DNA of 64,000 nucleotides from an uncultured Gemmatimonadota bacterium (GCA_964573995.1 CAZNLH010000001.1:112810-176809); one strand, 5' to 3'; shown: positions 1 through 10,528, counted from the first letter of the stretch. Numbers and translations are program-made. The notes: generated by a model from the letters alone, not told the origin.

Positions 1-1748
1 ACCTCTTGATCGGTGAGGGGGGGGCCCTTGGGGATGTATCGATTCCCGAGAAAAAGGTAATGCCGGGAGACTCGGCCGTATCGACATTGACCTTCGATAC
101 GGTGACGATTCCCGGGGCTGCCGAGCCAGGGCGGTACCCGTTGACCTTGTTCCTGGATGGAACAACGGGGCATGGGGGGGTATTCCAGCAGGTATTGAGT
201 CTATCCGACAGCGTAACACTGGAGGCACCTCCAGAAATAAGTTACCTGCCCAATACACTTTCTAACAGGAATGTCAGTTCGGGCTATCCTCACTTCTTCA
301 CTCTGCGCCTGGCGAACGGCGGTGGATCGAGCTTGGATCTCGATCCCAACGGTTCGATCTTCTACTTCTCCGGCAGCGACACCTCATACTCGAGCCAACT
401 CTTTGGCCAGGGCGTATCCACAATAAACCCGGGGACCGACACCACCCTTACCTTTTCGCCTGCCGTGGTCCCCGGGTCCCTGGCTTCAGGCTCGTACCCT
501 GGTTTCGCCGTCCTCAGCGGAAATTTCAACGGCGTAAGTTACCTGGACACCTTGTCCGTGGATTCCATATATGTCGAGAGGCCGGCCACGCTCAGGGTAG
601 ACCTCCTGTCGGCCCCGGAAAAGGTATCACAGGGGGAGACGTTCTCCGTCAGCGCCATGCTCACAAATGAAGGAGAGGCCGGCGTTATCTCCAGCGGATC
701 GGTAACCTTGAGCGCTGAGGGGTTGGGTGTGCAGAATCCTACCTTGTCCTTTGGCCCTGCGCTCCCTGACACCGCGTCCTGGCAGGTCTCGGTGCCATCT
801 GGTATGAGCCCTGGTATTGTGGAGTTGTCGGTAAGCATTAGTGAAGCGCCCTTGGACGAGAATTCCGGATTGTCCGCCTTCCTTGCCCAGGAGACAGACA
901 ACTTTGCCCTCTCCGTCGTCGAGAGAAACCGGCTATCCCTTGAGCGAATGGATATCACGGATATTCCACCGCAGAACGTCTTCAAGGGCCAGAAGGGCGT
1001 CCCGATGCTCTACCTCCTATCCCGCAGCATGGGGGAAAAAGAGGGAGATATACGGCTGGACGATATCGTTATAAGAGTCGAAGAGCGTGGCGGAATTACG
1101 GTCTTAAATCCTGAGAATGTACTTGACAGGATCTATCTCGGTGGATCGGGGGGCGACAGTGTCATTGCTGAGGCTACCAGCCCGGTCCAGGGTGAATACA
1201 CCCTGTCACCGGCAAATGAATACCGAATCGGGAGTGATCCCGACACGCTTCGCTTCTTCGTGGATGTCTCCCCGAAGGCGAATGTGGTTACGTTTCAACT
1301 TATGATAAACGGGGCGGAAGCGGTCGATGCGGTCGACCTTTCCACCGGCCTGCCGGCCAACATTGTCGAGGGGAATTCGGAGGATCCATTGGGCGCACTC
1401 AGGAGTAATTTTACTGTCCTCAACCAGCAGGACTTCGCTGGGTCATTCAAGAATTACCCAAATCCCATGGGAAGCGGCGATGGATCCACGACCTTTGCCT
1501 ACTATCTCCAAGAGGAATCTAATGTTACAATCATGATATATACCCTGACCGGGTCCCTGGTAAAGAAGTTCCATTTCCCCGCAGGTCAGACCGGTGGCCG
1601 CGGTCCGAGTATCAACCAGGTCAGGTGGGACGGCTTGAACGGGAGGGGACGGTACGTGAATAACGGCGTTTATATATGTATCGCGACGGCCAGGACGCGG
1701 AGCGGAAAGACCTATACTACACGCCACAAACTCGCTGTGATGAGGTAG
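1..1748 (+). CDS. Large secreted surface protein carrying a C-terminal T9SS type-A sorting domain (FlgD-Ig-like). The 5' end lies outside the window.
   Basis: The ORF runs from the window edge. The last ~90 aa ('NYPNPMGSGDGSTTFAYYLQEESNVTIMIYTLTGSLVKKF...VRWDGLNGRGRYVNNGVYICIA...KLAVMR') match the Por/T9SS C-terminal sorting-domain pattern. The upstream part has repeated ~130-aa Ser/Thr/Gly-rich beta-type modules. Confidence 0.6.
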   Translation, partial: LLIGEGGALGDVSIPEKKVMPGDSAVSTLTFDTVTIPGAAEPGRYPLTLFLDGTTGHGGVFQQVLSLSDSVTLEAPPEISYLPNTLSNRNVSSGYPHFFTLRLANGGGSSLDLDPNGSIFYFSGSDTSYSSQLFGQGVSTINPGTDTTLTFSPAVVPGSLASGSYPGFAVLSGNFNGVSYLDTLSVDSIYVERPATLRVDLLSAPEKVSQGETFSVSAMLTNEGEAGVISSGSVTLSAEGLGVQNPTLSFGPALPDTASWQVSVPSGMSPGIVELSVSISEAPLDENSGLSAFLAQETDNFALSVVERNRLSLERMDITDIPPQNVFKGQKGVPMLYLLSRSMGEKEGDIRLDDIVIRVEERGGITVLNPENVLDRIYLGGSGGDSVIAEATSPVQGEYTLSPANEYRIGSDPDTLRFFVDVSPKANVVTFQLMINGAEAVDAVDLSTGLPANIVEGNSEDPLGALRSNFTVLNQQDFAGSFKNYPNPMGSGDGSTTFAYYLQEESNVTIMIYTLTGSLVKKFHFPAGQTGGRGPSINQVRWDGLNGRGRYVNNGVYICIATARTRSGKTYTTRHKLAVMR

Positions 1749-1753
1749 CATCA

Positions 1754-3625
1754 ATGTCTTCAGGTACGTACATCAAACGCTTGTTCTTACCTGTGATCCT
1801 CATGTCCCTTTCATGGTGGGGCCTGCTCATCGCAGATCCAGCGGAGGACGGGGGCACCGAGGGACTATTCTCCTACGGGGCCGGTTCCCGCGCCATTGGG
1901 CTCGGGGGGGCCGGCACGGCCGAACCGGCTGATTACACTGCAATCTACTGGAATCCCGCCTATCTCGATTTCGTACCCAGGATGACGGCGGGTTTCTTCC
2001 ATACATCCTTTGTCGAAGGTACACCGTATGACTTTGCCTCATTTACCTTCCCGACGCTGCGCATGGGGACGTTCAGTGGAGGACTCTTCCGTATCTCTAC
2101 CGGGGGGATTACGAGATACGACGAGTATGGCGTGCCGGGAGGGTCTTTCTCCTTCTCTCAGGAGGAATTCCTGCTCGGATACGGTAAGAAGGTCATCAAG
2201 GGGGGGAGCGCCGGTGTCCTCCTGAAGGTCGATCACCAGGCCATGCTCACCAATAACGCAACCGGGGTCGGATTCGATGCGGCCTTCTCCTATAACCTCG
2301 GGGTGGATTCTCCCTACCTCTCTTCAATCCGGACAGGTATCGTCTTCAGGAATTTGATCTCTCCGTCGTTGAAACTGGTGTCTCGATCAAATACCCTTCC
2401 AAAGTCCATAGTCGTCGGACTTGGAACAACGATTAATCTGACACACTCCCATCGGATTACGCCACTCTTCGACCTTGAAAAAATGAGTTATCATTTCTGG
2501 CAGATGAAACTTGGAATTGAATACAACTACCTTAACTATATATCTTTCAGGGGAGGTTTCAATCAGTTGGCAAGGTCATTCGGCTTCGGTTTGAGCCTGA
2601 AGAACGGGGTGGGCTTCGATTATGCCTTGAGAGATGCGGACCTCCTTACCCAACACCTCTTTTCAGTAAAGTACTCCTTCGGTCTTTCGAGAGATGAAAA
2701 AGTTGCGCAAGAGAAGCGAATGGAAGAAGAGCGGGTTGCGCGTGAGGTGAAGGAGAACTTTCAGGCGAGAAAGAGAGAAGAGATCAAGAAACACACTCAG
2801 AAAGCGCAGGACTATCTCGCGGGAAAAGATTATTTCTCCGCGCTAAGTGAATGGCAACAGGTACTGGCGTGGGATGAAAACAATGAACTGGCCAGGACGA
2901 CAATCGAGAAGATTTCCACTATACTAGATGACCTGCAGAAGGAGCGGGACCTTGACGCTGCGACTCGGGTGGCCAGCCGGGAACTATTCGATGTTGGTAT
3001 CAAGTATTATACTGAGAAGCGTTATCCAGAGGCGATATCATCATGGGAGCGGGTACTCGAGATCGACCCGGACCACTCGCTTTCGAAGGAGTATATCGAG
3101 CGGGCCAGGGAAGAAGTGAGGAACCTGGTTCATGCCCAGACCGACAGGGCAAATCGGCTGATACAGGCGGGCGACTACACCGCGGCATTAAATGATTATC
3201 ATGTAGCCCTTAGATATGACCCGCAAAACCTGGCGGTGTTAAAGGGAATCAAGAGGGCACAAGACCTCATACGCTCCAATGAGTCTTTCCGTGAAGGCCT
3301 GACCTACTATCTTAACAATGATTATGAAGGAGCGGAAAAGGCACTCAGACGCGCGCTGGAACTCAACCCTAACAACTTGATGGTGAAGGATTACCTCTCT
3401 GAGATCGATGCACGGAGGCAGGGGAAAACCGGTGAACTTCGTCCGGAACTTGAGAAGGATTACCTGAAGGGTGTCGATCTGTATCTCCAGGGGAAGTATT
3501 CGGAAGCCATCAAGATATGGGAAGGCGTATTGAGGGAAGACCCCTACAACCAACGGGTGACGAGGAACATAGAGGCGGCCAACGAGCGCCTGATGACCAT
3601 TAAAGAGATCGGATCGAAAAAATGA
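1754..3625 (+). CDS. Outer-membrane FadL/PorV-like beta-barrel fused to a C-terminal multi-TPR domain.
   Basis: ATG at 1754 follows a GGAGG-like RBS. The protein starts with a signal peptide ('MSSGTYIKRLFLPVILMSLSWWGLLIA'). Its N-terminal hatch motif 'GSRAIGLGGAGTAEPADYTAIYWNPAYL' resembles the FadL/PorV family 'GRA.SG.GA...D....RNPAL' motif. A coiled-coil linker follows, then ~8 TPR-like repeats ('YFSALSEWQQVLAWDENNELA', 'YPEAISSWERVLEIDPDH', and others). Confidence 0.55.
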   Translation: MSSGTYIKRLFLPVILMSLSWWGLLIADPAEDGGTEGLFSYGAGSRAIGLGGAGTAEPADYTAIYWNPAYLDFVPRMTAGFFHTSFVEGTPYDFASFTFPTLRMGTFSGGLFRISTGGITRYDEYGVPGGSFSFSQEEFLLGYGKKVIKGGSAGVLLKVDHQAMLTNNATGVGFDAAFSYNLGVDSPYLSSIRTGIVFRNLISPSLKLVSRSNTLPKSIVVGLGTTINLTHSHRITPLFDLEKMSYHFWQMKLGIEYNYLNYISFRGGFNQLARSFGFGLSLKNGVGFDYALRDADLLTQHLFSVKYSFGLSRDEKVAQEKRMEEERVAREVKENFQARKREEIKKHTQKAQDYLAGKDYFSALSEWQQVLAWDENNELARTTIEKISTILDDLQKERDLDAATRVASRELFDVGIKYYTEKRYPEAISSWERVLEIDPDHSLSKEYIERAREEVRNLVHAQTDRANRLIQAGDYTAALNDYHVALRYDPQNLAVLKGIKRAQDLIRSNESFREGLTYYLNNDYEGAEKALRRALELNPNNLMVKDYLSEIDARRQGKTGELRPELEKDYLKGVDLYLQGKYSEAIKIWEGVLREDPYNQRVTRNIEAANERLMTIKEIGSKK

Positions 3626-3643: not shown

Positions 3644-6600
3644 GTGGCACTTGTCAAATCAAATCGCCGAAAACTGAGAATACCAGCAGATGAATCATAC
3701 CTCGCCGAGGTTCGGGATTTCATAACGGAGATCGCCCGTTCAATAGGCTTCGAGACGAAGGATGTCAGCAGCATCAAACTGGCGGTCGACGAAGGGTGTA
3801 CCAATATCATCCGTCATGCCTACAGGGACATCCCCAACGGCGTAATCGAAATCCTTGCCGTCATCAAGCAGCGTGCCCTCTCGATCGTCCTCATCGATCA
3901 TGGAAAGAGTTTCGATTTCAAGAAGGCAAGCGATCCAAACCTCCAGACCTATATGAAGATAGGTAAAAAGGGCGGCCTCGGAATATTCCTTATGAAGAAG
4001 TTGATGGATGAGGTTGAATACCATGTTACCAATCGGGGCAATGAGTTATGGCTCACAAAGCGAAAGTCCATGGAGAGAGAGTACTTCCTCGGATTCCTGC
4101 CCAAAAGGTTGTCCCTGAAGACCAAGGTTACCTCCCTGGTATCGTTTATCTTCAGTGCGGCGGTACTTGGAGGGGTCGGTTACCTGTACAGGGCCCAGGA
4201 GTCAGAGGTAGAGTCCAGGATATTTTCTCAGGGTATTGAAATCGTCCGCAACCTGTCGCTCAATTCCTGGGTCGATCTCAGCCAGGACAATGACCTCAAC
4301 CTCGCCTCTCAGGTCAAGAACGTAGCCCAGGAGAGCCCTCTGGTTTCAGAGGCGTTTATCACGGATATGAATAATAAGATCTGGGCCCATTCGGACATAC
4401 GAAAGACCTTTTCTACGTACCTGCCGCCGCGTCACATCGAATTGATCGGGAACCCCGATCACCAGACGGCCATCTTCTCTTATACTCTGCCAAAGGGAAA
4501 GCGGCTCGTGCAGATATCCACGCCGATTCGCGTAGAGGGCCCTGATGGACAAGACAAGCAGATGGTCATAGGTAAGGCGAATATAGTCATCCCGCGCGAC
4601 GCCATCGACAACCTCGTTTCGGAGGCTCAGAGAAGGCTCAAGATAATCGCCATTCTCCTCATTGCATTCGGCAACATGGGTATCTTCGCGCTTTCCTATC
4701 TATTGATGAAACCCTTTCAGCGACTTGCATCATGGGTCAGGGGCATGGGGGAGGGGAGCATGGAGGAAGCGCTCGTTCTCGACACGAACGATGAGATGGG
4801 AGAGATCGCCGAGGCCTTTAACGACATGGCATACAAGTTCAGGAAGGCGCAGGGGAGCCTTGTTGAAAAGGAGCGCCTCCAGCAAGAGGTCCTCGTGGCG
4901 CAGGAGATCCAGCACATGCTGCTTCCGCGCTCCTTTCCCAGCGTAGAGGGCTTCGATATCGCATCCTTCTACCGGGCGGCCAAGGAGGTTGGAGGTGACT
5001 ACTTCGACTTCGTTTGGGTCGACCCCGATACCCTCGGACTCGTCGTAGCCGATGTCTCGGGAAAGGGTGTCCCGGGCTCTCTTGTAATGACCATGATTCG
5101 TACTACATTGCGCCTGGAGGCAAGAGGGAACAAGTCGGCCTCCGATGTCCTGTCGAATGTCAATCGGTTTGTATCCGACGACATCAAGAAGGGGATGTTC
5201 GTGACGATGTTCTATATCATTCTCGACTCGAGGAGAAGGAAGATAGACTTTGCCAGTGCAGGACACAATCCACTCATTCTCTATCGTAACAAGACGAAAA
5301 AATCCTATTATCTCAACCCGGAAGGGTTCCCTGTCGGCATCTCTATGCAGAACAAGAGGTTGTTCGATGAATCGATTCACTCCGACTTCCTGCACTTGTC
5401 ACAGGGGGACCTCCTGATTGCTTATACAGACGGGCTGACGGAGGCAATGAACTCGGAGCGAGAACAGTTCGGCGAAGAGCGTTTCCTGGAATCCATACGA
5501 AGGTATGCCGGTCTGCCTGTGAATGAATTCGTAGAGAATATCAGGAAAGATGTCCAGGAATTCACGCAGGGTTTTCCACAGAATGACGACATTACCCTTG
5601 TCGCGATCCAGGAAAAACTGCAGGCTGATTCTCACCTTATGCAGATCAGGACCAGGCTGATAAATCTCGTGGAAAAGGATGGGGTGAGCGTAAAAGAGGC
5701 CTGCCGCAGGATGCGCGTATCACCCTCCACCTATTACCGGTACAAGAAGAGGTGGGAGGAAGAAGGTCTTGAGGGCCTCAGGAACCGGGTTGAGCGTGAC
5801 CACATTGCAGAGCGCCACATCAGTATTGAAGATAGAGCCAAGATCATGGATATCATGCAGAAGCATCCGGAATACGGTGCGAAGAGGATATGCCAGGAAT
5901 TGAATATAGAAGCATACGGGTTCACGAAGATTCCAGAGACCAGGATTTACGAGGAACTGAAGAAATTGAACCTCAACACGGAGGAACTGAGAAGACGTCA
6001 CGTTGAGAAGGGACATTCGAGTACAAAGAGATTGAAACCTCCCGGGACTCCGCTCCTCACAATTGAGGGGAAGGTGATCGATACCGGTGAACTCGACGGG
6101 GTTTACAAATCGCATGTATCCGGAGAGGGGGAGAAGAAGAGCATGAAAGGCCTGCCGCCCATGATGGACTGGGACATGGAACAACCAAAGGATGTCATCG
6201 CCACCAATCTCCCGAAGGATTCGGGAAGTCCGGGCGTGGACGGGCGGAAGGATCGTTGGAAGAAGAATGGAATCAAGAGAATTCCCCCGAAGAGCCCGCT
6301 CTGGCCTTCCGTGGAACAAAGGGTCAAGGCAGGTAAACTCGGAATTACAAGCCAAGGTCAGAGCGCTTCGGTGAGTGTAAGCCTTCCATCTCATCCCATT
6401 CACCCCGCGGTACGATCGCTTCCACTGATCATTCATCACCATAGAGAACTCGGCGATTTCATCAGAAAAGAGGTTGACCGTACGGTGAGCCTGCGCAAGA
6501 AGATCTTGCTCCTCGACTGCTCGAGTTTAGACCAGGATTGCCGTATCCTGTGGAAGGAAGTAGTCGACATTGTGGAGGATTTCAGGAACAGGGGAGGAGA

Positions 6601-6727
6601 CATCTTCCTGTGGAATCTTACGGGCCGGCATTTGGATAATTACAACGCTAATGGAATAGACAAGAAGGTCGTTCATATCACCTCGATTCAGGACTTGAGG
6701 GATCGACTGAGGTTTCTCAGGTTATAA
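3644..6727 (+). CDS. Single-polypeptide partner-switching regulator. Domain order: RsbW/SpoIIAB-like HATPase kinase, TM, extracytoplasmic sensor, TM, HAMP, PP2C (SpoIIE/RsbU) phosphatase, transposase-like HTH pair, C-terminal STAS-like domain.
   Basis: GTG start with RBS 'ggaaggg'. The N-terminus ('LAVDEGCTNIIRHAY...GGLGIFLMKKLMDEVEY') is RsbW-like. Two TM segments flank a ~170-aa sensor region. HAMP: 'ASWVRGMGEGSMEE...EMGEIAEAFNDMAYKF'. PP2C: 'GGDYFDF...VADVSGKGVPGSL...AGHNPLILY...DGLTEAMN...NDDITLVAIQ'. HTH: 'VSVKEACRRMRVSPSTYYRYKKRWEEEGLEGL' followed by 'RAKIMDIMQKHPEYGAKRICQELN'. The C-terminus ('KILLLDCSSLDQ...RNRGGDIFLWNLT') aligns with the STAS protein at 9869 ('LIIDLEDVDYISSAG...RKKGGDIKLARMT'). 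Confidence 0.75.
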   Translation: MALVKSNRRKLRIPADESYLAEVRDFITEIARSIGFETKDVSSIKLAVDEGCTNIIRHAYRDIPNGVIEILAVIKQRALSIVLIDHGKSFDFKKASDPNLQTYMKIGKKGGLGIFLMKKLMDEVEYHVTNRGNELWLTKRKSMEREYFLGFLPKRLSLKTKVTSLVSFIFSAAVLGGVGYLYRAQESEVESRIFSQGIEIVRNLSLNSWVDLSQDNDLNLASQVKNVAQESPLVSEAFITDMNNKIWAHSDIRKTFSTYLPPRHIELIGNPDHQTAIFSYTLPKGKRLVQISTPIRVEGPDGQDKQMVIGKANIVIPRDAIDNLVSEAQRRLKIIAILLIAFGNMGIFALSYLLMKPFQRLASWVRGMGEGSMEEALVLDTNDEMGEIAEAFNDMAYKFRKAQGSLVEKERLQQEVLVAQEIQHMLLPRSFPSVEGFDIASFYRAAKEVGGDYFDFVWVDPDTLGLVVADVSGKGVPGSLVMTMIRTTLRLEARGNKSASDVLSNVNRFVSDDIKKGMFVTMFYIILDSRRRKIDFASAGHNPLILYRNKTKKSYYLNPEGFPVGISMQNKRLFDESIHSDFLHLSQGDLLIAYTDGLTEAMNSEREQFGEERFLESIRRYAGLPVNEFVENIRKDVQEFTQGFPQNDDITLVAIQEKLQADSHLMQIRTRLINLVEKDGVSVKEACRRMRVSPSTYYRYKKRWEEEGLEGLRNRVERDHIAERHISIEDRAKIMDIMQKHPEYGAKRICQELNIEAYGFTKIPETRIYEELKKLNLNTEELRRRHVEKGHSSTKRLKPPGTPLLTIEGKVIDTGELDGVYKSHVSGEGEKKSMKGLPPMMDWDMEQPKDVIATNLPKDSGSPGVDGRKDRWKKNGIKRIPPKSPLWPSVEQRVKAGKLGITSQGQSASVSVSLPSHPIHPAVRSLPLIIHHHRELGDFIRKEVDRTVSLRKKILLLDCSSLDQDCRILWKEVVDIVEDFRNRGGDIFLWNLTGRHLDNYNANGIDKKVVHITSIQDLRDRLRFLRL

Positions 6728-6802
6728 TCGTGCCTTGACAGGAGACGGCATGCAACAGCATATTTACGCCCGTTGGAGTATTATGACGAATCTGAGGGTC
6801 TA

Positions 6803-7405
6803 ATGAAGAGCGGAAATATCGAGGGCATTATAAGGACCTCTCTTGAGGAAGCTATCCGTGTCAAGAGAGAGATGATCAACGTAATGTCCCCGGCTATCAT
6901 GGAGGCCGTTGAGATGCTGGCTGCCTGCATCGGGGAGAATCACAGGGTTTACTTGATGGGCAATGGAGGAAGTGCCTCGCAGGCGCAGCATATGGCCGCG
7001 GAGTTGATAGGTCGATTCGAACTGGAGAGTTCGCCCCTGCCAGCTGTTGCCCTTACTGCAGATTCATCCGTGTTGACCGCCTTGGGCAATGACTATGGAT
7101 ATCAGGATATATTTGCCCGTCAGGTCGATGCACTTGTCTCGAGCGGTGACGTGGTGGTTTGCTTCAGCACGAGCGGGGCCTCTGAGAATGTGATTCGCGG
7201 CGCGGAGAGGGCAAAGGCCAAGGGCGCACGCGTGATCGGCTTCCTCGGCACGGGAGAAAGCCCCCTTTCCAAGGTCGTCGACCTTGGTCTTCACGTCCCC
7301 TCTGCACGTGCAGGCCGGGTTCAGGAGGGGCACATCACGCTCGTCCACGTCATCTGCGAGGCACTCGAAAGACTACCATTGAAGACGAGGAAGAATGGTG
7401 CTTAA
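6803..7405 (+). CDS. gmhA: D-sedoheptulose-7-phosphate isomerase (phosphoheptose isomerase, SIS domain).
   Basis: 'VYLMGNGGSASQAQHMAAELIGRF...VCFSTSGASENVI' matches the GmhA SIS motifs. ATG at 6803 follows RBS 'gaggg' and aligns with the E. coli GmhA N-terminus. Confidence 0.85.
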   Translation: MKSGNIEGIIRTSLEEAIRVKREMINVMSPAIMEAVEMLAACIGENHRVYLMGNGGSASQAQHMAAELIGRFELESSPLPAVALTADSSVLTALGNDYGYQDIFARQVDALVSSGDVVVCFSTSGASENVIRGAERAKAKGARVIGFLGTGESPLSKVVDLGLHVPSARAGRVQEGHITLVHVICEALERLPLKTRKNGA

Positions 7406-8267
7406 ACTTCTTGAATCGATGCGGCCGAAGCAGTGGGTCAAGAACGGCTTCGTCTTCACCGCTCTTATCTTTTCAAAGAATGTCTTTGAGCCTGTCCTCT
7501 TTTTCCGTGTCACCGTCGCCTTCGTAGTATTCTGCCTGATCTCAGGCGTAGTTTACATCATCAACGATGTCTTTGATCTCGAGCGCGATAGGCTTCATCC
7601 ATCAAAAAGGGATCGCCCTATCGCCTCCGGAGACCTGAGCGTCCCCGTTGCCGTCACATTCGCGCTGAGTCTCCTCCTGATCATTTTGGCAAGCGTTTTT
7701 TTTATCTCGGTGAGGCTCTGCTTGATTCTCCTTGCATATTTCATATTGAACCTGGCCTATTCAATGAAACTCAAGGAGATAGTCCTGCTCGATGTCTTCT
7801 CGATTGCAGCGGGGTTCGTCATCCGAGTATTCTCGGGTGCCCTGGTCATTCAGGTGTCGATATCATCCTGGCTTATTGTATGTACCATTCTTCTCTCGCT
7901 CTTCCTCGCCTTTTCAAAGAGAAGGCACGAAATAGTGATTCTCGAGGGCTATGCCGTTGACCATCGGAAAATATTGTCAGAGTACAGTACGACTTTCCTT
8001 GATCAGATGATCTCGGTTGTAACTGCGTCAACGGTCATATCGTATGCACTCTACACTATGTCTGAAGAGACGGTAGCGAAATTCCACACTCAGAAGTTGA
8101 TATACACGGTTCCCTTCGTACTATACGGGATCTTTCGTTACTTGTACCTGATTCACCAGAAGAGCGGGGGGGGTGATCCGACGGCGCATCTCTTAACCGA
8201 TGTGCCGTTGATTGTCAACATTATGCTGTGGATAACCATTTCGGCGGCAATCATTTACAGGCCTTAA
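7395..8267 (+). CDS. UbiA-family prenyltransferase resembling decaprenyl-phosphate phosphoribosyltransferase (DPPR synthase-like).
   Basis: Polytopic membrane protein. The 'MRPKQWVKNGFVF' start region and the Asp-rich 'NDVFDLERDRLHPSKRDRPIASG' motif are typical of the UbiA superfamily DPPR-synthase subgroup. RBS 'gaggaag'; overlaps the gmhA stop. Confidence 0.6.
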   Translation: MVLKLLESMRPKQWVKNGFVFTALIFSKNVFEPVLFFRVTVAFVVFCLISGVVYIINDVFDLERDRLHPSKRDRPIASGDLSVPVAVTFALSLLLIILASVFFISVRLCLILLAYFILNLAYSMKLKEIVLLDVFSIAAGFVIRVFSGALVIQVSISSWLIVCTILLSLFLAFSKRRHEIVILEGYAVDHRKILSEYSTTFLDQMISVVTASTVISYALYTMSEETVAKFHTQKLIYTVPFVLYGIFRYLYLIHQKSGGGDPTAHLLTDVPLIVNIMLWITISAAIIYRP

Positions 8268-8563
8268 ACAAAACAAGGGATCCCAAACGCATTGAACCTG
8301 GTCAGCCCTGAGATCGCTGGTCCTCGATTGTGGAAATCCCCGTTATTCAGGTGACCCGGAAAGACCTCTATAGATATTCTTCCGGAAAGGGCGCGGGTCC
8401 TGTAGCCGATTACCCCGCCCGTGCTCGTTAAGACTACATGGGCGGCAAGGGCCCCATCGGTGCCGCCCGAGCGAAAAGGCAAGGGACTCCCAGGGCAGGA
8501 CATTAGCAAAGGAAGGCCTTAGGTAAGGCCAGCAGAGACATAAGAGAAAGGAAGCAAGACCTG

Positions 8564-9655
8564 ATGGGTAAGACTAAATCAAAGGTCGCCGTCTTGTGGA
8601 CACGCCCCGAGACGGTCGTCGAGGATTACAGCCGCCTTCTGCACCTGATTTCTTATCAAGAATATCTTCCGCGGGATAGAGAGATCGCACTCAAGGTCAA
8701 CATATCATGGGCCAAATTCTATCCCGGCTGCTCTACTACACCGTGGCAATTGGACGGTGTGATACGTACCCTCATAGACGACGGCTATGCAAAGGAGTCG
8801 TTGTATGCCTGCCACAACCGGACGGTGGTTGTGAGCGCCAAGAGGGGCGAGGTCAAGAACAAGCAGAAGAAAGTGATCGTTGATAAATACGGCCTCAGGA
8901 ACATCCATCTCTATGAGGGTGAGGAGTGGGTCAGGTACAACCCGAAGGGAGAGATACTCGTCCTCAATGATGTGTTCAAAGATGGCATCTATATCCCGAA
9001 GCGGCTGATCGGGAGTTCAATAATTCACCTGCCCACCATGAAGACCCACGTCTTTACCACGATAACAGGTGCCATGAAGAACGCCTTTGGCGGACTTCTC
9101 CACGAGAAGCGCCACTGGACCCATTCGGTGATACATGAGACGCTCGTTGATCTCCTTACTATCCAGAAGGAGATTCACCCGGGGATACTGGCGGTCATGG
9201 ACGGTACGTTCTCAGGAGATGGTCCGGGCCCGCGTGCGATGCACGTCCACGAAACAGATTGCATACTTGCCAGCACCGATCAGGTTGGAATAGATGCCGT
9301 TGCCGCCAAGATGATGGGTTTCGACCCCATGTCGATAAGGTTTATCAGGATGGCCCATGAAAAGGGCCTGGGATGCGGCGACCCGAGGGATATCGAGATC
9401 GTCGGGGACGATATCTCCAACGTCAATTTTTACTTCCAGGGCAATAAGAACACATTGGCCAGCAGGGGTCAGAAACTGATCTACCATGGTGCGCTCAAAC
9501 CACTTGAAAAGGTCCTCCTGCGATCCGCAATAACGCCGTGGTCCTACCTTGCTTCCTGGCTCTACCACGATGTTTACTGGTATCCCCTCGTCGGGAGGAG
9601 ACGTGTAAGACAGGCCCTCAAGACCAAATGGGGGAAACTCTTCTCTTCCTATTGA
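8564..9655 (+). CDS. DUF362 domain-containing protein.
   Basis: Family resemblance over 'KVNISWAKFYPGCSTTPW...IIHLPTMKTHVFTTITGAMKNAFGGLL...AVMDGTFSGDGPGP...DAVAAKMMGFDP' to DUF362 proteins. Confidence 0.6.
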   Translation: MGKTKSKVAVLWTRPETVVEDYSRLLHLISYQEYLPRDREIALKVNISWAKFYPGCSTTPWQLDGVIRTLIDDGYAKESLYACHNRTVVVSAKRGEVKNKQKKVIVDKYGLRNIHLYEGEEWVRYNPKGEILVLNDVFKDGIYIPKRLIGSSIIHLPTMKTHVFTTITGAMKNAFGGLLHEKRHWTHSVIHETLVDLLTIQKEIHPGILAVMDGTFSGDGPGPRAMHVHETDCILASTDQVGIDAVAAKMMGFDPMSIRFIRMAHEKGLGCGDPRDIEIVGDDISNVNFYFQGNKNTLASRGQKLIYHGALKPLEKVLLRSAITPWSYLASWLYHDVYWYPLVGRRRVRQALKTKWGKLFSSY

Positions 9656-9798
9656 TCTGCAATATTGATCAACCGGATCCTTATCCCCACCTTTTCTCCA
9701 TCGTGGCATATATATTGCTAAACTTTGTATTAGTGTCTCCATGCCATGATTGATTGAAGACACGCTCGAGTGAATGGATGGACGTGGCTTATTTCGCC

Positions 9799-9827
9799 TT
9801 GACATCCGCAGTTGATTCGTGTACAAT
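9799..9827 (+). promoter_or_regulatory. Near-consensus sigma70 promoter (TTGACA-17 nt-TACAAT) upstream of the STAS-HTH gene.
   Basis: Sequence 'cTTGACAtccgcagttgattcgtgTACAATtta' with -35 at 9799-9804, -10 at 9822-9827 and an exact 17-nt spacer. It sits ~40 nt upstream of ATG 9869. Confidence 0.5.
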
Positions 9828-9868: not shown

Positions 9869-10528
9869 ATGGAAGGCATTCAGGTCTCGATAGACAAATT
9901 GGGCCTGGCGTCCGATACTTTCTTGATTAAGGTCGGTGGATACGTCGATACGACGACATCTCAGGAACTTGATCGAGCCCTGGAAGATCTCCTGAAAAAA
10001 GACATCATCAGGTTGATAATCGACCTCGAGGATGTCGATTACATCAGCAGCGCCGGCTGGGGGATTTTCATATCAGAAATAAAGACGATTCGCAAAAAGG
10101 GAGGAGACATAAAACTTGCCAGGATGACCCCGGATGTCTTCGAGGTCTTCGAACTCTTGGAGTTCCATCGCATACTCAAGTGCTACGATTCGGTCGATGA
10201 GGCAATCAAGGACTTCGAACTTGAATCGGGTGGGAGAGACCGTGTAGAGGCCAAAGAAGAAGACGACGTGGAAAGCGTCCCCGTGGAAGATCATGATAGT
10301 TCTTCCGAGGTGCAACTTGCTGGGGACGTCAGAACCCTCTCCCTGGAAGAAAAGATCAAGCGAATTGTCAGGAAGAATCCGGAATTTGGTACCGCTGATA
10401 TCCGGCGGCAACTTATGTCGGAACAATATGGACCCCTTCGCGTGGGGTCTTTTCAAATCTACCGCCTCTTGAGGAAACTCGACCTCAACTCGATGAAGAA
10501 GCGGGTGATTTTTTCCAGGTCTAAGTAG
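9869..10528 (+). CDS. Anti-sigma-factor antagonist (STAS/SpoIIAA-like) with an acidic linker and a C-terminal transposase-like HTH domain.
   Basis: ATG at 9869 follows 'ggagga'. STAS motifs 'IIDLEDVDYISSAGWGIF...KKGGDIKLARMTPDVFEVFELLEF'. Acidic stretch 'EAKEEDDVESVPVEDHDSSSE'. The C-terminal 'IKRIVRKNPEFGTADIRRQLMSEQYGPLRVGSFQIYRLLRKLDL' resembles the HTH_32/IS630-IS481 N-terminal HTH. Confidence 0.7.
   Translation: MEGIQVSIDKLGLASDTFLIKVGGYVDTTTSQELDRALEDLLKKDIIRLIIDLEDVDYISSAGWGIFISEIKTIRKKGGDIKLARMTPDVFEVFELLEFHRILKCYDSVDEAIKDFELESGGRDRVEAKEEDDVESVPVEDHDSSSEVQLAGDVRTLSLEEKIKRIVRKNPEFGTADIRRQLMSEQYGPLRVGSFQIYRLLRKLDLNSMKKRVIFSRSK

Follow-up and report, generated by a model that had tools for sequence, protein, structure and literature searches.

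A predicted membrane-bound kinase-phosphatase sensor with an acceptor-less STAS-fold tail and a conserved neighbouring STAS-HTH protein in an uncultured Gemmatimonadota bacterium

Most work on partner switches concerns sets of three or four separate proteins whose action ends on a sigma factor. In the 64,000-nucleotide stretch of DNA from an uncultured Gemmatimonadota bacterium (GCA_964573995.1 CAZNLH010000001.1:112810-176809), which is called the window here, one open reading frame (ORF) of 1027 amino acids (aa) was originally predicted to unite the whole circuit, that is, an RsbW-type kinase, a PP2C phosphatase and a STAS substrate domain, together with a membrane sensor and a helix-turn-helix (HTH) pair, so that the phosphorylation state of the STAS domain would be set within the molecule. 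The question raised by this locus is whether the protein is such a self-contained device or whether its kinase and phosphatase act on another protein. Here, we find that all of the named domains are present in the predicted order, as confirmed with Pfam, hydropathy, AlphaFold2 (AF2) models, Foldseek and hhalign, and that the C-terminal STAS-fold domain has no acceptor residue at the canonical position. We propose that the protein, called the sensor below, is a membrane-bound bifunctional serine kinase/phosphatase that acts on a separate STAS-HTH protein, called the partner, as its substrate and output. To this reading we assign a probability of about 0.55. The sensor gene with its parts and the partner gene are as follows.

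3644..6727 (stop codon included), plus strand: sensor gene, 1027 aa, GTG start; supported by an identical protein (P0001) and 14 full-length orthologs
3680..4060, plus strand: RsbW-like serine kinase domain (HATPase_c_2), aa 13-139; Pfam, NCBIfam, motif conservation
4127..4189, plus strand: first transmembrane helix (TM1), about aa 162-182; hydropathy
4190..4633, plus strand: single Cache/PDC periplasmic sensor domain, aa 183-330; weak sCache Pfam matches, AF2, Foldseek
4634..4702, plus strand: second transmembrane helix (TM2), about aa 331-353; hydropathy
4691..4831, plus strand: HAMP domain, aa 350-396; Pfam
5024..5611, plus strand: PP2C/SpoIIE serine phosphatase domain, aa 461-656; Pfam, motif conservation
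5642..6043, plus strand: transposase-type HTH pair (HTH_23/28 plus HTH_32), aa 667-800; Pfam, NCBIfam
6026..6079, plus strand: conserved motif KRLKPPGTPLLTIEGKVI, aa 795-812; comparison of sensor variants
6080..6400, plus strand: low-complexity linker with a clade-specific PPxSPLWP motif (6272-6310); ortholog comparison
6401..6724, plus strand: degenerate STAS-fold domain, aa 920-1027, with the acceptor-equivalent Arg967 at 6542-6544; AF2, Foldseek, hhalign
9869..10528, plus strand: gene of the partner, a 219-aa protein (counted from ATG) with STAS and C-terminal HTH, its acceptor serine codon at 10049-10051; Pfam, orthologs

The kinase assignment at the N-terminus is supported by the Pfam scan, with HATPase_c_2 (PF13581) matching aa 13-139 at 109 bits against a cut-off of 27.4 (E 2e-31), and the N-box (E50/N54), G1 (D85xG87) and G2 (G110-G113) motifs are at least 99% conserved among 120 homologs. 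In NCBIfam, aa 7-140 match the model for the anti-sigma B factor RsbW best and that for SpoIIAB second best. Both fall under the equivalog cut-offs (89.6 versus 145 for RsbW, NF003144; 54.8 versus 135 for SpoIIAB, TIGR01925), so that the domain is RsbW-like and not an RsbW ortholog. The phosphatase domain matches SpoIIE/PP2C (PF07228) above threshold, at 170.6 bits and E 5e-50, and its metal-binding residues D452, D455, D470, D596, D648 and D649 are essentially invariant in the same 120 homologs. With the motifs of the kinase and the aspartates of the phosphatase thus intact, both enzymatic domains look active.

Of the sensing part, the transmembrane pair and the domain enclosed by it stand as predicted, while its length is about 148 aa (between hydrophobic segments at about aa 162-182 and 331-353) and not about 170. 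The enclosed stretch is modelled by AF2 with a pLDDT (predicted local distance difference test) of 93.9, and in Foldseek it matches Cache/PDC domains from the extracellular parts of WalK, CitA and KinD. No match to a receiver domain (Response_reg, REC) was found in the sensor, the input being Cache plus HAMP. The HTH region gives matches to HTH_23, HTH_28, HTH_29 and HTH_32 at aa 667-769, every one above its gathering score; its named best matches are the N-termini of IS481, IS3 and IS630 transposases, and against Protein Data Bank (PDB) sequences it has only weak matches, a small tandem-HTH protein (E 0.013) and TnsB (E 0.14). The protein is covered by no curated family model, and in the source annotations the family appears only as "SpoIIE family protein phosphatase" or "RsbU/anti-sigma regulatory factor".

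For the C-terminal 227 aa (801-1027), Pfam gave no match at E<=0.1, the STAS and STAS_2 models included, and NCBIfam gave no match either, so that with sequence models alone the predicted STAS assignment would wrongly have been rejected. A profile of the tail from the 14 orthologs reaches STAS anti-sigma-factor antagonists among PDB sequences only marginally (E 0.076-0.64), with de novo designs ranked higher. By contrast, the AF2 model from the same 14-ortholog alignment has a pLDDT of 93.2 and the beta-alpha pattern typical of STAS, and its top Foldseek matches are nearly all STAS domains (SpoIIAA, RsfB, RsbS, TM1081 and SLC26 STAS; TM-score 0.65-0.75). The hhalign comparison with the downstream STAS family gives a probability of 92.8% (E 3.8e-7, 99 columns) and pairs RNRGGDIFLWNLT of the sensor tail with RKKGGDIKLARMT of the downstream STAS, which are the very segments on which the original prediction had based its alignment of the tail with the stand-alone STAS protein 3 kb downstream. 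Searched against 1.84 billion representative proteins, the tail profile has only three strong matches, all from the window's own clade; beyond this clade the listed matches that we scanned are STAS proteins, the next-best having three tandem STAS domains. Going by these models and alignments, the sensor C-terminus is a STAS domain at the level of fold and remote homology.

What the fold does not bring with it is the acceptor. In the hhalign alignment, as well as in a BLAST high-scoring segment pair to the canonical STAS of a relative, the acceptor S71 of the partner (in the numbering of a 229-aa ORF, see below) aligns with Arg967 of the sensor, in the context DCSSLDQDC-R-ILW. Among the 14 orthologs, the window's subclade has R or G in this column, and the other subclade has I or V. 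The serines S960 and S961 of 'DCSSLD', originally proposed to contain the phospho-acceptor, sit in the loop after strand 3 and are not conserved. The conserved acceptor Ser/Thr at the N-terminus of helix 2 is thus absent and, as read from the alignments, the tail is not phosphorylatable at the canonical site. With R, G, I or V in the acceptor column and the DCSSLD serines unconserved, the idea of the C-terminal STAS as a canonical substrate in cis fails for the window sensor. For annotation, the lesson is that a Pfam-negative tail can have a STAS fold and that a STAS fold does not imply phosphorylatability.

The partner has what the tail lacks. Its STAS domain is found by Pfam at E 8e-20, and its acceptor S71 is the second serine in VDYISSAGWG, which aligns with the first serine of DSSG in Bacillus subtilis SpoIIAA, which is Ser58, the phosphorylation site. 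The segment VDYISSAGWGIFISEIK around this acceptor is invariant, even between loci with a sensor identity of only about 50%. Against PDB sequences the partner matches classical STAS proteins only. At its C-terminus there is always an HTH, which is 39% identical over 56 aa to the second HTH of the sensor, with reciprocal hidden Markov model matches. The mechanical ORF starts at TTG 9839 and encodes 229 aa; since all orthologs start with MEGIQVS at ATG 9869 and GGAGGA precedes this codon, the true product is probably of 219 aa, in the numbering of which the acceptor is S61. With the profiles built in this analysis, no further kinase, phosphatase or STAS gene was detectable in the window.

The pairing of the two genes is conserved. 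Besides the identical protein, homology search gave 14 full-length orthologs with the same tail (50-73% identity), all continuous ORFs from independent assemblies, so that the fusion order that the original prediction proposed to look for recurs, and the sensor core is found in 77 further loci. Among the matches listed, more than 100 proteins align through the HTH, that is, over about 78% of the query, and then diverge into long acidic linkers with TPR repeats, into a helical domain (Calditrichaceae) or into almost nothing (sensors of about 860 aa). The HTH pair is family-wide among the sensor variants, although in several Calditrichaceae it is too divergent for Pfam, while the degenerate STAS tail occurs only in the window's clade, most relatives having TPR or other tails. 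The relatives include a Glassbacteria-labelled protein (P0011) and a Gemmatimonadota-labelled metagenome-assembled genome (MAG; L007). The partner family was found in more than 507 species genomes, mostly of Calditrichota, candidate division KSB1 and unclassified MAGs, when its alignment was searched against a set with a single genome for each species. Of 85 loci, 77 have the sensor gene upstream of the partner, at a distance of no more than 400 bp in 71 cases; of the eight exceptions, seven are contig-edge cases. The conserved gene order is a giant surface protein, a protein of about 640 aa, the sensor and the STAS protein of about 215-245 aa. In the literature on the sensor architecture or on Caldithrix partner switching we found no description of this sensor family.

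It is useful to compare these genes with known systems. In Vibrio fischeri, SypE carries an N-terminal RsbW-like kinase and a C-terminal PP2C phosphatase that flank an input module in one polypeptide, and it sets the phosphorylation of the separate STAS protein SypA, which is the output and controls a cell-surface trait (PMC10120452, PMC3610818); the same layout is seen here, with control of a surface trait being a prediction for the window system. By contrast, the input of SypE is a cytoplasmic receiver domain, while that of the window sensor consists of TM1, Cache, TM2 and HAMP; moreover, SypE has neither the HTH pair nor the STAS tail, and SypA has no HTH. In Mycobacterium tuberculosis, Rv1364c fuses a sensor domain, a PP2C phosphatase, an anti-sigma kinase and an anti-anti-sigma STAS domain in one chain (PMC12143880). 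Its order, PAS, PP2C, kinase and STAS, differs from that of the window sensor, it is cytoplasmic and it has no HTH, whereas the STAS of the window protein has no acceptor serine, so that the combination of phosphatase, kinase and phosphorylatable STAS in one chain, as in Rv1364c, is not found in the window sensor. It would therefore be wrong to take fused circuits as being without precedent: Rv1364c (PMC12143880) joins phosphatase, anti-sigma and anti-anti-sigma domains, and SypE (PMC10120452) joins kinase and phosphatase.

A resemblance at the domain level only is seen with CapK/CapS, in which CapK, a kinase protein with HTH, STAS and GHKL domains, phosphorylates the STAS serine of CapS, a repressor with STAS and winged HTH, upon which the CapS dimer breaks and leaves the DNA (PMC13373217). 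No close sequence relationship was detected, judged from the PDB sequence search with the partner, which gave classical STAS proteins. CapK is soluble and activated by single-stranded DNA and has no phosphatase, Cache or HAMP, all three of which are present in the window sensor, and the winged HTH of CapK/CapS differs from the transposase-type HTH here. CapKS adjoins immune operons, whereas the window locus sits in a cassette with an adhesin of the type IX secretion system (T9SS); the candidate of a CapKS-type immune regulator was rejected, as a PADLOC scan gave no matches. The SiaA/SiaB/SiaC system of Pseudomonas aeruginosa is similar in that a membrane HAMP-PP2C protein opposes a kinase on a small partner, with aggregation and biofilm as the trait (PMC7647112). 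There the kinase and the phosphatase are separate proteins, while they are fused in the window sensor, and the NCBIfam SiaA score of the sensor is 73 against a cut-off of 700. An HTH is not known from the Sia proteins.

Based on these comparisons, we propose the following mechanism. The periplasmic Cache/PDC domain would receive a cue and pass the signal through TM2 and HAMP, by which the balance between the PP2C phosphatase on the C-terminal side and the RsbW-like kinase at the N-terminus would be shifted. The substrate would be the STAS-HTH protein (9869-10528) at the canonical S71 and not the sensor's own tail. The analogy to CapS and SypA suggests that, depending on phosphorylation, the STAS-HTH protein would oligomerize differently, bind DNA differently or be captured differently by the kinase domain. 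The STAS-HTH protein would itself be the effector, and probably a DNA-binding regulator. This output would regulate the adjacent surface cassette of a giant T9SS-type adhesin and a PorV-TPR protein; because the cassette holds these two, it is suggested that the regulated trait is related to the cell surface or to secretion. The STAS-fold tail of the sensor is most likely a pseudo-substrate, dock or scaffold, placed at the variable adaptor position of the family.

Several points weigh against this mechanism. The partner is assigned as the substrate from synteny and motif conservation. The mechanism gives no role to the family-wide HTH pair; in CapK, deletion of the HTH was without phenotype (PMC13373217). 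In the window's clade the partner lies 3.1 kb from the sensor, behind three unrelated genes and with promoter-like elements of its own, so that the co-regulation of sensor and partner looks looser than in relatives. In another locus (L005:10001-14426) a short sensor of 863 aa keeps the upstream TPR gene and has no adjacent STAS gene. Finally, a non-canonical phosphosite may exist in the C-terminal STAS or in the linker.

A more specific picture, which we hold only tentatively and regard as doubtful as a whole, is a surface-tied partner switch independent of sigma factors, where the Cache domain would read the state of the adhesin and PorV-TPR protein, the kinase domain would capture either the STAS-HTH protein or the sensor's own competing pseudo-STAS/HTH, and phosphorylation would decide between holding the STAS-HTH protein at the membrane and releasing it to DNA, and where the fused STAS modules, whether three canonical ones, a degenerate one or TPR in their place, would be versions, arisen in evolution, of a built-in competitor that tunes the switch.

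A hint at where the fused domain may have come from is given by a sister clade, the sensors of which (P0130, P0138, P0125 and P0144) have three tandem Pfam-positive STAS domains fused in cis. They are 44% identical to the window sensor over aa 10-789, with the core of HATPase_c_2, sCache, HAMP, SpoIIE and HTH in common, and each of the three STAS domains typically has a partner-like acceptor motif V-x-Y-(I/V)-S-S-(G/A/T)-G-W. The sister-clade loci keep the adhesin and PorV-TPR genes upstream and have stand-alone plain STAS genes in place of the STAS-HTH gene; in two of the cassettes (L087:8001-15582 and L088:8001-15102) the genes behind the sensor encode, besides two plain STAS proteins, a ParA/MinD-like ATPase and a TPR protein. 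As far as these motifs tell, the all-in-one circuit of phosphatase, kinase and acceptor-bearing STAS does exist in the sensor family (P0130, P0138), but that of the window is not a functional one. In one protein (P0152) the third STAS is degenerate and, like the window's tail, keeps the tryptophan and loses the serines. A neighbour-joining tree of the core, which has no bootstrap, is midpoint-rooted and is distorted by one long branch, places the degenerate-STAS clade between the clade with three STAS domains and the TPR, short and helical variants. This placement is suggestive only, being compatible with the window tail as a decayed remnant of fused STAS domains; the tail may thus be what is left of domains that are still canonical in the sister clade. 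Note also that the sensors with three STAS domains end in a conserved basic tail (…GW..YG..L(R/K)…).

We can now weigh the other explanations of the locus. That the kinase and PP2C domains set the phosphorylation of the sensor's own C-terminal STAS, which would gate the HTH pair in cis and give a one-component signal-to-DNA device, would agree with the presence of kinase, phosphatase, HTH and STAS fold in one chain, with the three acceptor-bearing canonical STAS domains in cis in the sister clade, and with Rv1364c, which shows that such fusions exist (PMC12143880). For the window sensor this is nevertheless very unlikely, given Arg967 at the acceptor position with R, G, I or V in the orthologs, the unconserved DCSSLD serines, and a STAS tail that is restricted to one clade and that most of the family does without, in contrast to the canonical STAS-HTH partner, which the family nearly always has. 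It can practically be dismissed that the ORF is an artefact, namely a chimera from misassembly, a frameshift that fuses genes, or a decayed insertion sequence (IS) element that gives the HTH: independent assemblies show a continuous architecture in the 14 full-length orthologs and in 77 loci, conservation extends to the junction regions, the GC content is steady at about 0.50-0.54 along the whole ORF with even base composition, and a DDE domain is absent from the ORF. On the other side are the transposase N-termini (IS481, IS3, IS630) as best named matches of the HTH region, and the sensor ORFs of two MAG loci (L066:6146-8455 and L067:6708-9965) that are truncated or split within the HTH region, where the breaks are probably frameshifts or assembly errors and not natural two-gene versions.

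The two remaining explanations assign the output differently. In a classical partner switch, the RsbW-like domain would be an anti-sigma factor holding an alternative sigma factor, encoded elsewhere, at the membrane, and the unphosphorylated STAS-HTH protein would displace the sigma factor. This follows the canonical logic of the family (PMC10120452, PMC11619594), and RsbW and SpoIIAB are indeed the best NCBIfam matches of aa 7-140, but the scores are far under the equivalog cut-offs (89.6 versus 145 for RsbW), gene calling in the conserved neighbourhoods examined gave no sigma factor gene (a sigma-factor model was not run over the window), the fused kinase-phosphatase SypE works without sigma sequestration (PMC10120452), and the HTH of the partner suggests that the partner itself is the effector. 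We therefore regard it as unlikely. Alternatively, as in the logic of ToxR and CadC, the HTH pair of the sensor would bind DNA at the membrane, with the STAS-HTH protein as a phosphorylation-controlled co-factor or competitor. It would then be understandable that the HTH pair passes the Pfam gathering thresholds, occurs in every sensor variant and has a second member with 39% identity to the partner HTH. However, DNA binding by the pair is a prediction, the HTH is internal and followed by long disordered linkers and bulky tails, several Calditrichaceae have HTHs too divergent for Pfam, and the HTH of CapK is dispensable (PMC13373217), which makes this explanation quite unlikely. In comparison with these explanations, action of the sensor on the STAS-HTH partner agrees with the intact enzymatic motifs, the loss of the acceptor in the tail and the conserved gene pairing.

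Each principle of the proposed system has a precedent, that is, the kinase-phosphatase fusion in SypE, the all-in-one fusion in Rv1364c and the STAS-HTH output in CapS. What sets the system apart is that the input at the membrane is of the Cache/HAMP kind, that the HTH pair is transposase-type, that the tail is modular and here contains a dead STAS, and that the genes lie in the context of a T9SS adhesin. The family spans over 500 species from Calditrichota, KSB1 and uncultured lineages related to them; it has kinase, phosphatase, Cache and HTH pair in one membrane protein, and the STAS-HTH protein paired with it could itself be a transcription factor. The neighbouring giant T9SS-type adhesin and PorV-TPR genes point to an unstudied coupling of surface or secretion status to gene expression. 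Moreover, the C-terminal series of three live STAS domains, one dead STAS, TPR and none offers a ready comparison of how fused substrates and pseudo-substrates may tune a switch.

The other features of the cassette in the window are the following.

1..1748, plus strand: 3' end of the gene for the giant surface protein, which opens the cassette and runs off the window; its C-terminal domain is of the FlgD_ig/T9SS type
1676..3625, plus strand: PorV/PorQ-family outer-membrane barrel fused to C-terminal TPR repeats, upstream of the sensor; NCBIfam
6773..9655, plus strand: genes of a GmhA-like SIS isomerase, a protein like UbiA-family decaprenyl-phosphate phosphoribosyltransferases and a DUF362 protein, between sensor and partner
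9704..9719, plus strand: sigma54-type -24/-12 element TGGCAT-N5-TTGCT, upstream of the partner gene; motif scan, ortholog conservation
9799..9827, plus strand: near-consensus sigma70-like element TTGACA-N17-TACAAT, upstream of the partner gene; motif scan

In relatives, the counterparts of the giant surface protein are between 2270 and more than 4500 aa long and contain PKD, Big_1 or invasin repeats. The PorV/PorQ match reaches 103 bits against an NCBIfam cut-off of 90, and synteny of the gene with the sensor holds in all relatives examined; the GTG start of the sensor is 19 nt past the stop codon of this upstream gene. The PorV-TPR protein is a possible periplasmic partner of the sensor's Cache domain. 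The three genes between sensor and partner are present in the window's clade only, and the GmhA-like sedoheptulose-7-phosphate isomerase and the UbiA protein match envelope-glycan enzyme families. The sigma54-type element has one match in the 64 kb, against 0.05 expected, and is conserved in three related loci (L001, L007 and L003). Taking the predicted sigma54-type and sigma70-like elements together, the partner gene in the window's clade is apparently served by a promoter of its own, which may be dual. A search of the same upstream region for inverted repeats that could be operators yielded only short and unconvincing pairs, and the conserved elements there look like promoters.

Finally, we note some minor observations on the parts of the sensor behind the HTH. 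Immediately behind the HTH, the inspected TPR, helical, short and degenerate-STAS sensors have the motif K-x-PGTPL(L/V)T(I/L)DG-x-VI, which is missing from the sensors of the sister clade with three STAS domains; the motif has a weak similarity to beta-strand 1 of the first STAS domain in that clade (GITLLNIEGHL; BLAST E 0.64). In the linker, the motif (K/R)(I/L)PPxSPLWP at aa 877-889, the Ser-Pro of which is invariant, occurs in the degenerate-STAS clade and not in the other tails inspected, and it may match the xEW(E/D)SL segment in front of STAS domain 2 in the clade with three STAS domains (BLAST E 0.09). In the L005 locus, a gene for a protein of 616 aa overlaps the stop codon of the short sensor.

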